This document shows, piece by piece, positions 20,644 to 23,648 of a stretch of DNA of 64,000 nucleotides. Both the position numbers and the translations under genes were made by a program. The notes under the pieces are model-generated. The model saw only the letters and a program-made list of their open reading frames with translations, was not told the DNA's origin and did no database searches. How positions within the stretch are numbered: the stretch's first letter is position 1; each line of letters begins with the position of its first letter. Origin of the DNA: Myxococcota bacterium (GTDB lineage Bacteria; Myxococcota_A; UBA9160; SZUA-336); the NCBI GenBank assembly GCA_044450765.1, contig JBIOJK010000003.1, forward strand, positions 19,856-83,855, in the 5' to 3' direction.

Positions 20644-20845
20644 GGGGAGCTGCCTCGCGAGCCTGGCTCGCCGGTGGGCGTGTATGAAAGCACCAGGTCC
20701 CGGGAGTGTCAACGCTGCGGGCGCGCAGATCGCGGGTGAACGCTCGCGGAAAAGTTCGCGTCTCGTTCTTGCATTGCTGCGCGCCGCTTTGATAAGCAAC
20801 TCTCATCCCACTCGTTCGCGCCTCGCGAAAGGTCCGACTCCCCCG

Positions 20846-22165
20846 ATGACTGCGAAGATGACTGAGCTCGTCCGCCCGGACGAGGCCGCTTCCCTTTGGA
20901 AGTCGGTGCTGCAGACGCCCTCGCCGAGGATTGGCGCCGCGACGAGAGACTCGCTCGCGGAGAGCACGCGCTGCCTCGAGCGCACGGGGTCGGAGCTCCG
21001 CGTCGCGATCGACTCGGCGCAGCTCGACGCCGGGCTGCGCGGCGGCCAGCTGGCGGTGCTCGAGGTGTCGCTCGCGAATCTCACCGACGGTGCGACGGCG
21101 CTCGCTCTCGTGCCCGTCGAGGATCTCGGATCGAAGCGCGGCGACCCGAGCTACACGCTCGCGACCTTCGTCGCGAGCCCGGCGAACGCGAAGGCGCGCG
21201 CGAAAGCGGCGGCGTTCGCGCGAGACGCGCCGGCGTCGGGTGGCGCGCTGGCACTCCACGGCGGCGCGAGCTCGGGCAAGACGCACCTGCTCCGAGCGAT
21301 CGCCAGCGCGCTCGGCGATGCGCGCGGCGTCGAGCGCGTGCTCTGCTGCAGCGCAGAGCAGCTGTGTCAGGAGCTGATCCGCGCGATCTGGGCTGACTCC
21401 GTCGACGAGTTTCGCGAGCGCATCGGCTCCGTCGACGCGCTGGTCGTCGACGATCTCGACGAGCTCGTGGGCCGCGACGCGACCCAGGAGGAGCTCGCGC
21501 TGGCGCTCGAGACGCTCGGCGCGCGGGGTGTTCCGATCGCGATCTCGCTCTCGAAGCCGATCGAGCGCACCTCGGGAATGGTCGCCTCGCTGCGCGGTCA
21601 GCTCGCCCGCTTCGCGGAGCTCGAAGTGCGCGCGCCCGAGTGGGAGACCCGGGTCGCGATCGTGCTCGCGCACGCGCGGCGCTGGCGCGTCGAGCCGAGC
21701 GCCGCCGTCGCGTCGTTCATCGCGAGTCGGCTGCGCGCGCACCTCGGCCGGCTCGACGTCCTGCTGACTCGCCTGATGACGCGCTCGTCGGCCGCGGCGA
21801 GCGCGCTCGCCGATCTCGACGTGGTCAAGCACCTGCTCACGGGCGCGGGCGAAAAGCCGCTCGCGACCTCGCCCGACGACGTTCTGACCGCCGTCACGCG
21901 CCAGTTCAACCTGCGCGTCCGCGAGCTGCGCTCGTCGAGCCGCAGCGCGCGAGTGACTACGCCGCGCCAGGTCGCGATGTACCTGATGCGACGCCACTGC
22001 GGGCTCTCGTATCCGGAGATCGGCCGCCGCTTTGCGCGCCACCACACGACCGCGCTCCACGCGGACCGCATCGTGCAGGCGCAGCTGTCCGAGAACGCGA
22101 GTCTCCGCGCGGCCGTCGTGCTGATCGAGAAGGATCTTCTGCGGCTCTCCGAGGGCGGTGGATGA
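20846..22165 (+). CDS. dnaA: Chromosomal replication initiator protein DnaA (short, divergent N-terminal region)
   Basis: ATG at 20846 (MTAKMTELV; second ATG at 20858). Walker A GGASSGKTHLL, Walker B ALVVDDLDEL. Domain IV: SRSARVTTPRQVAMYLMRRHCGLSYPEIGRRFARHHTTALHA. The track start at 20633 overlaps rpmH. Confidence 0.9.
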   Translation: MTAKMTELVRPDEAASLWKSVLQTPSPRIGAATRDSLAESTRCLERTGSELRVAIDSAQLDAGLRGGQLAVLEVSLANLTDGATALALVPVEDLGSKRGDPSYTLATFVASPANAKARAKAAAFARDAPASGGALALHGGASSGKTHLLRAIASALGDARGVERVLCCSAEQLCQELIRAIWADSVDEFRERIGSVDALVVDDLDELVGRDATQEELALALETLGARGVPIAISLSKPIERTSGMVASLRGQLARFAELEVRAPEWETRVAIVLAHARRWRVEPSAAVASFIASRLRAHLGRLDVLLTRLMTRSSAAASALADLDVVKHLLTGAGEKPLATSPDDVLTAVTRQFNLRVRELRSSSRSARVTTPRQVAMYLMRRHCGLSYPEIGRRFARHHTTALHADRIVQAQLSENASLRAAVVLIEKDLLRLSEGGG

Positions 22166-22358
22166 GCGGTGGAAAACAGCAGCTCGCTCGCCGCCCACCG
22201 CGCGCGTCCACCGCAGAGCCACCTGCTGCGTCGCAGCGGCGTGAGGAAAATCTCCTGCGCGGCTGCTCCCGCACGCGGATTTTCCAGATTTCCACAGGGC
22301 TCTCTCCTACTCCTGCATTTCATGTCATAAGATCAGGAGCAGAGGGGCGGAGGTTGCT
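22166..22358. other. Candidate oriC segment or dnaN control region (dnaA-dnaN intergenic)
   Basis: Lies next to the gene-strand switch. Contains TCCACA-core boxes (TTTTCCAGA 22280-22288, TTCCACAGGG 22289-22298, TTTTCCACC on the minus strand at 22168-22176). Also an AT-rich 18-nt loop (22316-22333) flanked by CTCCTG/CAGGAG. Confidence 0.3.
22289..22298 (+). promoter_or_regulatory. DnaA-box-like element TTCCACAGGG (copy 1)
   Basis: ATTTCCACA matches 7 of 9 positions of TTATCCACA. The identical 10-mer recurs at 23532. Confidence 0.3.
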
Positions 22359-23462
22359 ATGAAGCTCAGCATCGAACGCGAAGAGCTGTTGCGCGGACTC
22401 GGCCGCGTGCAGGCGATCGTCGAGCGAAAAGGGACGATGCCGATCCTGGCGAACGTCCTGATCGAAGCGCGCGACGACGGTCTGACCCTGGCGGCGACGG
22501 ATCTCGAAGTCGCCGTCGTCGCGCGTCACCCCGCGAAGGTGAAGATCGCGGGCTCGGTCACGCTCGGCGCGAAGAAGCTGTACGAGATCGCGCGCGAGCT
22601 CGAGCACCCCGAGGTCTCGCTGGTCGCCGACGACGCGCGAGTCACTCTGACCTGCGGTCCGGCGAAGTTCAATCTCTTGTCGACGTCGCCGGAGGAGTAT
22701 CCGAGCGTTCCGAGCGCGGAGAGCACGACCTTCGCCCAGCTCGACACCGGCCTCGTCGCGGAGCTGATCGACCACACGCTGTACGCCACGTCGAGCGACG
22801 AGACCCGCTACAACCTGAACGGCGTCTTCATCGAGAGCGCCGACGGGAAGCGCGTGCGCTTCGTCGCCACCGACGGCTACCGGATCTCGCTCATCGAGCG
22901 CGCGGTGCCCAACCCGGTGGGCTTCCTGGCGAAGGGCATCATCGTGCCGCGCAAGGGCATCGCCGAGATCCGCAAGCTGTGCGACGAGGCGGACGGCTCG
23001 CTCGAGATCGGCGCCGCCGATGGATTTCTCCACGTGCGCCGGCCCGATCTGTTGCTCACCACGCGGCTGATCGACGGCGAGTTTCCCAACTACCGGCAGA
23101 TACTCCCCAAGAGCCACCGCGTTCGGCTGCTGGTGGAGCGCGAAAAGCTGCTGCACGCGGTGCGGCGCATCGCGCTCATGGCGCACGAGCGGTCGCGCGG
23201 GTTCCGCTTCGTGCTGGCCGACGGACAGCTCGACCTCTCGGCCAGCAACCCCGACCTGGGCGAGGCGCGCGAGCTGCTCCCGGTGGAGTATCAGGGCGAG
23301 CGCTTCGAGACCGCATTCAACGCGCGGTATCTGCTCGACGTGCTCGGTGCGATGACCGCGAAGGAAGTCGCCATCGAGCTCTCCGAGGAGCTCAGCCCGG
23401 CGCAAATCAGGCCTGCGGACGACGCCGATGAGAGCGCCGTCATCATGCCGATGCGGCTGTAG
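22359..23462 (+). CDS. dnaN: DNA polymerase III subunit beta (sliding clamp)
   Basis: 367 aa. MKLSIEREELLRGLGRVQAIVERKGTMPILANVLIEA is the canonical start. GGAGG RBS upstream. C-terminal IMPMRL. Confidence 0.95.
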   Translation: MKLSIEREELLRGLGRVQAIVERKGTMPILANVLIEARDDGLTLAATDLEVAVVARHPAKVKIAGSVTLGAKKLYEIARELEHPEVSLVADDARVTLTCGPAKFNLLSTSPEEYPSVPSAESTTFAQLDTGLVAELIDHTLYATSSDETRYNLNGVFIESADGKRVRFVATDGYRISLIERAVPNPVGFLAKGIIVPRKGIAEIRKLCDEADGSLEIGAADGFLHVRRPDLLLTTRLIDGEFPNYRQILPKSHRVRLLVEREKLLHAVRRIALMAHERSRGFRFVLADGQLDLSASNPDLGEARELLPVEYQGERFETAFNARYLLDVLGAMTAKEVAIELSEELSPAQIRPADDADESAVIMPMRL

Positions 23463-23531
23463 CCGAACGCGCTCGATTCAGCTAGTTTACCGAGCGTTTG
23501 CAGCACCTTGCGTCGCGAGGGACCCCCTGCA

Positions 23532-23541
23532 TTCCACAGGG
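23532..23541 (+). promoter_or_regulatory. DnaA-box-like element TTCCACAGGG (copy 2)
   Basis: Identical 10-mer to 22289-22298, located in the dnaN-gyrB intergenic region. Confidence 0.3.
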
Positions 23542-23648
23542 TCTCGAGCACCGGTGTCCATCGCCGGGTCCCGCGCACAGGGCTTCGGTCCTCCCCCATC
23601 CGCGACGGCTTCTCAAACGCGCCAGGTCCCAGGGGTTTTGAAACACGA

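Follow-up and report, generated by a model that had tools for sequence, protein, structure and literature searches.

Gene organization at the locus

A stretch of 64,000 nucleotides from a Myxococcota bacterium (assembly GCA_044450765.1, contig JBIOJK010000003.1, positions 19,856 to 83,855), hereafter called the window and numbered from its first letter, was analysed for the position of the chromosomal replication origin, oriC. The GC content of the window is ~70%. The final gene of a minus-strand block is rpmH (ribosomal protein L34; 20494-20643; Pfam Ribosomal_L34, E 1e-21), and dnaA (20846-22165; Pfam Bac_DnaA and Bac_DnaA_C), dnaN (beta clamp; 22359-23462; three Pfam domains, and TIGR00663 at 297.8 bits, above its cutoff), gyrB (23649-26084; Pfam and synteny) and gyrA (26095-28578; Pfam) follow on the plus strand. 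Three spacers separate these genes: rpmH-dnaA (20644-20845), dnaA-dnaN (22166-22358, 193 bases) and dnaN-gyrB (186 bp). The dnaA-dnaN spacer is proposed here to be oriC.

A first-pass annotation of the same DNA had read the region as an origin neighbourhood, with a minus-strand block up to 20.6 kb and a plus-strand block from dnaA to a DUF429 gene. Its gene calls and strands were confirmed by a Pfam search of the window proteins, and both blocks stand; the co-orientation is only local, with plus-strand genes at 4.8-7 kb and minus-strand genes at 34.6-36 kb. The neighbourhood reading is supported by the presence of the classical origin-proximal gene set, parAB-rsmG-jag-yidC-rnpA-rpmH on one side and dnaA-dnaN-gyrB-gyrA on the other, together with a cluster of DnaA boxes. 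An intergenic region beside dnaA in the conserved rpmH-dnaA-dnaN context, as looked for by DoriC and Ori-Finder, is present. No recF follows dnaN, as had been stated, and recF is likewise missing from the dnaN-gyrB gap in the other 18 loci (see below) that span it. The choice between the three spacers had been considered undecidable by eye. The sequence does decide it: all four near-consensus DnaA boxes and a conserved multi-part module are found in the dnaA-dnaN spacer.

DnaA boxes of the window and its relatives

A protein search with the DnaA of the window gave ~115 homologs at ≥38% identity. A scan of species-representative genomes yielded 21 related loci (L001-L021), all from metagenome-assembled genomes (MAGs) and most of them labelled Myxococcota, Myxococcales or Deltaproteobacteria. 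As far as the contigs reach, the order yidC-rnpA-rpmH, then dnaA-dnaN-gyrB-gyrA, is kept in these loci.

The E. coli-type box TTATCCACA, allowing one mismatch, had no match anywhere in the window, and neither had TTWTNCACA. The absence of a perfect canonical box reported by the first-pass annotation therefore extends to boxes with one mismatch to TTATCCACA. Because the searches with the E. coli-type box found nothing, the box motif of the lineage was taken from the relatives. With this motif, TTTTCCACA (≤1 mismatch, both strands), four matches were obtained in the 64 kb against ~1.0 expected. All four lie inside the dnaA-dnaN spacer, within 129 bp, and none elsewhere; each differs from TTTTCCACA by one mismatch. 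Boxes with two mismatches occur at background frequency (35 observed vs 28.6 expected in the window), and the copy in the dnaN-gyrB spacer, CATTCCACA, and the lone match in the rpmH-dnaA spacer belong to this tier. A box search with a lineage-specific model, which had been suggested as a check on the choice of spacer, thus singles out the dnaA-dnaN spacer. The predicted DnaA box of the lineage is TTTTCCAC(A/C)-like and not TTATCCACA.

Across the window and the 21 loci, the density of TTWTCCACA (≤1 mismatch) is 7.24/kb in the dnaA-dnaN spacer, 0.37/kb in the rpmH-dnaA spacer, 0/kb in the dnaN-gyrB spacer and 0.08/kb elsewhere. The boxes thus form a cluster on a species-specific consensus that is ~90-fold enriched across the loci. 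An unbiased k-mer enrichment gave, as top words of the dnaA-dnaN spacer only, TTTTCCA, TTTCCAC, TCCACCG and the triplet words CTCCTAC/AGTAGGA. The words enriched in the rpmH-dnaA spacer (GTTGACA, CTTGCAT/TGATA) are promoter-like, and those of the dnaN-gyrB spacer are GCGTTTGCAG and CCTTGCG; neither set consists of box words.

Organization of the dnaA-dnaN spacer

The spacer contains a box cluster and a putative unwinding module within a conserved length. Immediately 3′ of the dnaA stop codon lies the distal box R1 (TTTTCCACC, plus strand GCGGTGGAAAAC; 22168-22176, minus strand), where most of the 21 aligned sequences keep CGGTGGA(A/G)AAC. A second reverse box, R2 (TTTTCCTCA; 22242-22250, minus strand), matches TTTTCCACA with at most one mismatch; it is degenerate in the window and reads GGTGGAGAAAAG in L006-L009. 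Between the two reverse boxes, three CCACC cores begin at 22195, 22208 and 22219 (22195-22223, plus strand), all in the same orientation and with intervals of 13 and 11 nt. The cores are candidates for low-affinity binding; their spacing recalls the helical phasing of low-affinity DnaA sites. Relatives contain between one and three of these cores, a forward (T)CCACCG is kept mid-spacer in many of them, and CCACCG is enriched (30 observed vs 4.2 expected).

The proximal boxes F1 (TTTTCCAGA; 22280-22288, plus strand) and F2 ((A)TTTCCACA, as a 9-mer ATTTCCACA; 22288-22296, plus strand) abut each other and are equivalent to boxes 6 and 7 of B. subtilis, respectively. The G at position 8 of F1 is conserved in most of the clade. 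The TCCA-core boxes already marked at 22168 (minus strand) and 22280 correspond to R1 and F1, both within one mismatch of TTTTCCACA. A GC-rich spacer, GGGCTCT (22297-22303), leads from the boxes to the DnaA-trios (22304-22315, minus strand; top strand CTC CTA CTC CTG, bottom strand 3′-GAG GAT GAG GAC-5′), a proposed track for binding of single-stranded DNA. The AT-rich element CATTTCATGTCATAAGAT (22316-22333), the proposed DNA unwinding element, follows directly. No 20-mer in the 64 kb is richer in A/T than 22314-22333, which shares the top rank, and only one 30-mer of the window is less stable than 22304-22333; an AT-rich element thus stands beside the boxes, though a modest one in absolute terms. 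The sequence TAAGAT within it (22328-22333) may double as the -10 element of dnaN, whose ribosome-binding site, GGAGG (22349-22353, plus strand), is located 5 nt 5′ of the ATG at 22359.

Conservation of the module

Every locus has a dnaA-dnaN spacer of 177-202 bp, whose length never varies by more than 25 bp. At the flanking positions, ~1.2 kb is inserted between rpmH and dnaA in L014 (4606-6000), and ~1.7 kb between dnaN and gyrB in L019 (8561-10484). An alignment of the 21 dnaA-dnaN spacers revealed a fixed order of elements: R1, the mid-spacer box, R2, F1 with F2, the GC-rich spacer, the CTN triplets, the AT-rich element and the dnaN ribosome-binding site. Order and spacing of the module are kept across relatives down to 37% DnaA identity.

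The module of the window, TTTTCCAGA TTTCCACA GGGCTCT CTC CTA CTC CTG followed by CATTTCATGTCATAAGAT, has as its counterparts CATCCCAGA TTTTCCGC GGCG CTA CTA CTA CTA CTC TTT in L010 and GTTTCCAGA TTTCGCTC GCCC CTA CTT CTA CTA CTA TTC TTC in L012. The GC-rich spacer is 4-7 nt long across the clade, 7 nt in the subclade of the window and 4 nt in more distant relatives, where it reads GGCC, GCCC or GGCG. Two to eight uninterrupted CTN/NTN triplets occupy the same place and register in the relatives, and 11-19 of the 24 nt after the triplets are A/T.

Comparison with known origins

The basal unwinding system (BUS) of bacterial origins is defined by a DnaA box, often in tandem, a spacer of ≤16 bp and at least three trios with the consensus 3′-GAT-5′ (PMC8287927, Pelliciari 2021). 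In the search rule used, a box may have ≤2 mismatches to the species motif, an optional second tandem box ≤4 mismatches, and the trios carry a central A (3′-NAN-5′) on the bound strand (PMC8287927). In the dnaA-dnaN spacer, F1 (TTTTCCAGA) and F2 (ATTTCCACA) have one mismatch each and abut; the distance to the first trio is 7 nt for F2 and 15 nt for F1, and four trios (GAG GAT GAG GAC) are present. This site, 22280-22333, is the best BUS candidate of the window, with a score of 9 where the 95th percentile of shuffle maxima is 8. The other matches to the rule in the window involve 2-mismatch boxes inside genes and occur at chance frequency.

In B. subtilis, the top strand in the direction dnaA to dnaN reads TTATCCACA AATCCACA GGCC CTACTATTACTTCTACTA and then a T-rich segment (PMC8287927 Tables S1/S2, where it is printed as the complement); its counterpart in the window, also from dnaA to dnaN, is TTTTCCAGA TTTCCACA GGGCTCT CTCCTACTCCTG, and the two layouts agree base for base, with identical order and orientation of the parts. 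The two resemble each other, as read from sequence alone, in the location between dnaA and dnaN, the presence of distal boxes and the abutting 9-mer and 8-mer pair of the incC/BUS region (Richardson 2016, 2019; Pelliciari 2021, 2023), and in the short GC spacer, the 3′-GAN-5′ triplets on the bottom strand and the AT-rich element next to them. They differ in the box, TTTTCCAC(A/C) here and TTATCCACA in B. subtilis, in the clade-conserved G8 of the upstream proximal box, and in the triplets, four clean ones (GAG/GAT/GAC) here against at least six of the GAT/AAT type there. In addition, the genome here has 70% GC and the AT-rich tract in it is short, the subclade has a spacer of 7 nt, and an incAB-like box cluster upstream of dnaA is lacking. 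In B. subtilis, DnaA is passed from the distal boxes to the proximal pair through looping (PMC6669920), and the reverse box at 22168 is placed such that it could act likewise.

Within the same phylum, the predicted oriC/BUS of Anaeromyxobacter sp. Fw109-5 (DoriC ORI92040115; BUS at genome positions 1787-1817, Pelliciari 2021 Table S2, PMC8287927) shares the TTTTCCACA-type box and the position directly 3′ of dnaA. That site, itself a prediction, has a single predicted box, a 12-nt spacer and three triplets, and divergence of DnaA is far greater in the present clade. The TTTTCCACA box, with its A-to-T change at position 3, and the location adjacent to dnaN are also seen in cyanobacterial oriC (Synechococcus, Anabaena, Cyanothece; PMC4674748). 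In that unrelated phylum, however, dnaA is not adjacent and the boxes are perfect repeats.

Assignment of the probable origin

Because the near-consensus boxes are exclusive to the dnaA-dnaN spacer, the multi-part module is conserved and oriented, the length of the spacer is constrained and the gene context fits, we assign the spacer (22166-22358) with good confidence as the chromosomal origin, or at least as its module for DnaA assembly and unwinding. The spacer appears to function in the manner of the incC BUS of B. subtilis: DnaA would bind there through domain IV, at the distal reverse box 22168-22176, the weaker reverse box 22242-22250 and the two forward boxes that abut within 22280-22296. 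Starting at the proximal pair, an oligomer of ATP-DnaA would grow across the short GC spacer and engage, via domain III, the bottom-strand triplets 3′-GAG GAT GAG GAC-5′ (22304-22315). The AT-rich element 22316-22333 would then be stretched and opened just upstream of dnaN, the helicase would be loaded there, and replication would start within the spacer.

Several observations weigh against this assignment. The near-consensus boxes are few (4) and imperfect, and the G at position 8 of F1 and the T at position 7 of R2 fall at positions normally important for binding. Only four uninterrupted triplets are present in the window, and the AT-rich element is short (18 nt, 72% A/T). The BUS rule is permissive, with a candidate in 85% of predicted origins (PMC8287927), and chance gives ~2.7 matches per shuffled window. 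The loci share ancestry, which inflates the p-values of the enrichment; the contrast between the spacers is still large. The cumulative GC skew of the 64 kb falls on to ~27 kb and does not switch at 22 kb; local skew is dominated by gene content in a window that is only part of a chromosome. Canonical parS (TGTTNCACGTGNAACA, ≤2 mismatches) has no match in the 64 kb, the best parS-like match having three mismatches (16711-16726, adjoining parA).

Most likely, the spacer would represent an ordinary dnaA-linked origin of the BUS type in a new lineage, with an unusually divergent initiator. Only three points are mildly unusual: the element is compact, the trio-proximal box F1 has a conserved G8, and DnaA is atypical and evolves fast. 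A further reading, possible though on the unlikely side, is that the clade runs on an unusually compact, monopartite oriC of ~190 bp that co-evolves with this DnaA, and that CCCTGCATTCCACAGGG before gyrB is a DnaA-responsive operator. In that case, the G8 of TTTTCCAGA would imply either that box recognition has changed or that the loading site is weak by design, and the subclade-conserved CCCTGCATTCCACAGGG would couple initiation to gyrase expression.

With the assignment, an origin with its parts defined at base level would be available for an uncultured Myxococcota lineage whose initiator is not named DnaA by automatic annotation. The module adds a high-GC, Gram-negative example of the B. 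subtilis-type series of box, box, GC spacer, trios and AT-rich element, and its conservation across deep divergence supports the view that it is ancestral. It can also serve as an anchor when coordinates are set in these MAGs or when their skew and coverage (growth rate) are analysed. How replication initiation is understood in general does not change with the result.

The flanking spacers and a possible extended origin

The rpmH-dnaA spacer carries two divergent promoter-like blocks and a middle part that is not conserved; no DnaA box with ≤1 mismatch is found in the spacer of the window. The putative rpmH promoter (20684-20712, minus strand) consists of TTGACA (20707-20712), 17 nt and TTTCAT (20684-20689), and of the 18 rpmH-dnaA spacers whose length allowed them to be counted, 17 contain GTTGACA. 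The putative dnaA promoter (20769-20798, plus strand) consists of TTGCAT, 18 nt and TG-n-TAAGCA (TGaTAAGCA), and its block CTTGCATTGCTGCGCGCCGCTTTGATA is conserved across the clade. A strict scan for sigma-70 promoters and terminators did not pick up any promoter, the one proposed for dnaA included; a lone terminator-like hairpin (20745-20760) lies at chance level in the non-conserved part. In the presumed dnaA 5′ leader, ATCCCACTCGT (20805-20815, plus strand) is kept in L001-L009 and resembles the (A/T)ATCCCAC forms of F1/F2 in L003, L005 and L017. Speculatively, this motif could serve in autoregulation as a variant DnaA box. The spacer thus appears to hold putative divergent promoters and not boxes.

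In the dnaN-gyrB spacer, a block conserved clade-wide, GCTAGTTTACCGAGCGTTTGCAGCACCTTGCGTCGCGAGG (23481-23520, plus strand), lies upstream of gyrB. It contains a -10-like TAGTTT and the near-palindrome CCTTGCG-N-CGCGAGG, and is probably a promoter, operator or leader of gyrB and not an origin element. As RNA, the presumed gyrB leader folds no better than shuffled sequences (z 0.27). Downstream of the block is a 17-nt palindrome, CCCTG-CATTCCA-CAGGG (23525-23541, plus strand), which read as a DnaA box (CATTCCACA, 23530-23538) has two mismatches. L001, L003 and L004 have this palindrome unchanged, L005 lacks 1 nt of its loop, and from L006 onward other sequence stands in its place. When CTGCATTCCACAGGG was scanned in metagenome contigs, at least 120 matches were found; among the matches listed, none had dnaN or gyrB nearby and all were in unrelated, mostly lower-GC DNA, so that they were set aside as chance.

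The palindrome contains the second copy of the 10-mer TTCCACAGGG, which the first-pass annotation had described as a repeat unit flanking dnaN. The 10-mer does occur exactly twice in the window (expected count 0.04), in the two spacers named. The second copy is at 23532-23541 as given; the first is at 22290-22299, one position further on than had been stated, and its first 7 nt lie in F2. In shuffled sequences, some 10-mer common to the dnaA-dnaN and dnaN-gyrB spacers arose with a chance of ~8.5%, and one common to any pair of spacers with ~25%, so that the repeat alone is weak evidence. The interpretation as a repeat unit is not supported by the comparison with relatives, in which the GGG position of the dnaA-dnaN copy varies (ACTGAG, ACCGGG, ACAGCG) and only the TTCCAC core is common; the dnaN-gyrB copy is at background level. 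Since the GGG is not conserved, the two copies share only the TTCCAC core by descent. CTGCATT, noted beside both copies, occurs at 22313 and 23527 and nowhere else in the window, against 2.8 expected; its placement differs, 13 nt downstream of the 10-mer in one spacer and overlapping it upstream in the other. It was rejected as part of a composite repeat on account of this unlike placement, and the dnaA-dnaN copy is kept among close relatives only in L003.

Boxes in one or both flanking spacers might nevertheless loop to the dnaA-dnaN module in a bipartite or extended origin, with the second TTCCACAGGG as a functional weak box. Bipartite models are B. subtilis, with incAB and incC, and H. pylori, with oriC1 and oriC2. 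Consistent with such an arrangement, CTGCATTCCACAGGG is identical in the window, L001, L003 and L004 despite varying flanks, the deletion in L005 leaves WTNCACA intact, the dnaA leader has the conserved ATCCCACTCGT, and box-like words are found in the rpmH-dnaA spacer of a few relatives, such as ATTTCCACA in L012. Distal boxes of B. subtilis do act by looping (PMC6669920). However, the flanking spacers of the window hold only 2-mismatch boxes, at the background rate (35 vs 28.6 expected), and a second box cluster across dnaA is not seen: box densities across the loci are 0.37/kb and 0/kb against 7.2/kb. The words enriched in the two flanking spacers look like promoters, the motif before gyrB is gone from L006 on and is explained equally well by a 5-bp palindrome, and a shared 10-mer is expected by chance in ~9% of cases. 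We therefore consider an extended origin improbable; the putative weak DnaA site before gyrB lies outside the conserved origin architecture.

Regulatory and structural alternatives

Alternatively, the boxes between dnaA and dnaN could be merely regulatory, controlling the dnaN promoter or autoregulating the dnaA operon, with the true oriC elsewhere. In E. coli and Caulobacter, dnaA does not lie beside the origin. The lack of a skew switch in the window, the small number and imperfection of the boxes, and TAAGAT as a possible dnaN -10 element within the AT-rich stretch count in favour of such a role. A regulatory site, however, needs no oriented box pair, GC spacer, triplets and AT-rich element in fixed order and spacing across relatives. 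There is no other box cluster in the 64 kb, and the parAB, rsmG, jag, yidC, rnpA and rpmH context is typical of dnaA-linked origins. A purely regulatory function is accordingly judged quite improbable.

The inverted repeat CTCCTG (22310-22315) / CAGGAG (22334-22339), with its 18-nt loop containing 13 A/T, is present exactly as the first-pass annotation had given it. It is better read as trios plus unwinding element than as a hairpin, because its fold is no better than that of shuffled sequences and its arms lack covariation; CTCCTG is formed by the last two triplets of the trio track. A functional hairpin or cruciform, acting as a structural origin element or as an RNA attenuator before dnaN, is highly improbable: the repeat is a perfect one of 6 bp and unchanged in L001-L005, but 69 of 200 shuffles fold at least equally well (z -0.33), the arms in L006-L009 (CTCCTA and CAGAAG) pair at 4 of 6 positions without compensation, and the left arm is already accounted for by the triplet track. 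The CCCTG/CAGGG palindrome at 23525-23541 was rejected as a hairpin in the same way (z -1.07).

The DnaA protein

The initiator that would act at this spacer is a DnaA of 439 amino acids. TIGR00362, the family of canonical DnaA, is its best-scoring family by far, with Hda next at 54 bits; the score is 210.9 bits, below the equivalog cutoff of 343.9, and the alignment covers residues 97-430 only. The AAA+ domain III, with the Walker A motif GKTHLL, and the helix-turn-helix domain IV, with an HHTT..H recognition segment, are seen by Pfam. Domain I is not, and the linker (domain II) is only ~10 residues long. Pfam DnaA_N did not match this protein or any of the ~115 homologs; canonical DnaAs match at only 32-36% identity.

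Domain I was nevertheless recovered by two routes. An hhalign comparison of the N-terminus of the clade with canonical domain I gave a probability of 94.7%, and the AlphaFold2 model (AF2; predicted local distance difference test score, pLDDT, 86.6) folds residues 11-91 into an alpha-alpha-beta-beta-alpha-alpha-beta domain, after which comes a short linker. The top PDB matches are all DnaA: 8BTG, the B. subtilis DnaA BUS complex, as the best, 1L8Q and 3R8F. The architecture I, (II), III, IV is thus complete, with III and IV from Pfam and I from hhalign and AF2, and the short, divergent N-terminus remarked on by the first-pass annotation is real. The protein is a genuine DnaA whose domain I is divergent and whose domain II is nearly missing. 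It agrees with canonical DnaA (TIGR00362; E. coli, B. subtilis, A. aeolicus) in domains III and IV, in a domain I-like fold and in the position of its gene between rpmH and dnaN. It differs in falling below the TIGR00362 cutoff, in lacking Pfam DnaA_N, in the ~10-residue domain II and in its faster divergence.

Between the window and L001, DnaA is 74% identical, and DnaN, GyrB and GyrA are 93-94% identical; between the window and L010 the values are 49% for DnaA, 68% for DnaN and 72% for GyrB. Among the relatives, DnaA diverges ~20 identity points faster than DnaN and GyrB, and this difference is maintained at larger distances. At NCBI, a 100% identical protein of a MAG labelled 'Myxococcota bacterium' has no more specific name than 'DnaA ATPase domain-containing protein'. 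In the 'RDHTT' segment of domain IV, Asp is replaced by His; this change was dropped as a mark of new box specificity, as acidobacterial canonical DnaAs (P0118, P0120) also have KHHTT.

A sub-threshold Rfam match to AsdA, which in Salmonella is an antisense RNA to the dnaA mRNA, was seen at 21257-21325 on the minus strand, over the Walker A region of dnaA (25.6 bits vs a gathering score of 52). It was discarded as an RNA gene; a sub-threshold match antisense to the coding region of dnaA most likely reflects coding homology.

Neighbouring genes and other features

The block at 23481-23520 of the dnaN-gyrB spacer described above, GCTAGTTTACCGAGCGTTTGCAGCACCTTGCG(N)CGCGAGG, with its 7-bp near-palindrome, is conserved in nearly the whole clade. 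A second conserved stretch of this spacer, CACAGGGCTTCGGTCCTCCCC (23576-23596), is kept in L001-L005 and present in diverged form in L006-L009; its run of pyrimidines, CCTCCCC, could base-pair with a sequence of the Shine-Dalgarno type.

On the minus strand, Pfam identified parB (14974-15864), parA (15851-16678), rsmG and jag between parA and yidC, yidC (18256-19914), yidD (19927-20238, longest open reading frame) and rnpA (20118-20480). The parAB genes lie ~6 kb from the proposed origin. The longest open reading frames of yidD and rnpA share ~120 nt, and the true start of yidD is probably further downstream. On the plus strand, genes for an aminotransferase, atpB, tmk and an AAA_28 protein were found by Pfam between gyrA and the DUF429 gene (33917-34627). 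The minus-strand block also has a sulfatase gene and most of an ATP synthase operon. The ATP synthase genes are split by the proposed origin, with atpD, atpG, atpA and the two atpF-like genes on the left (9001-14477, minus strand) and atpB, for the a subunit, to the right of gyrA (30174-31145, plus strand).

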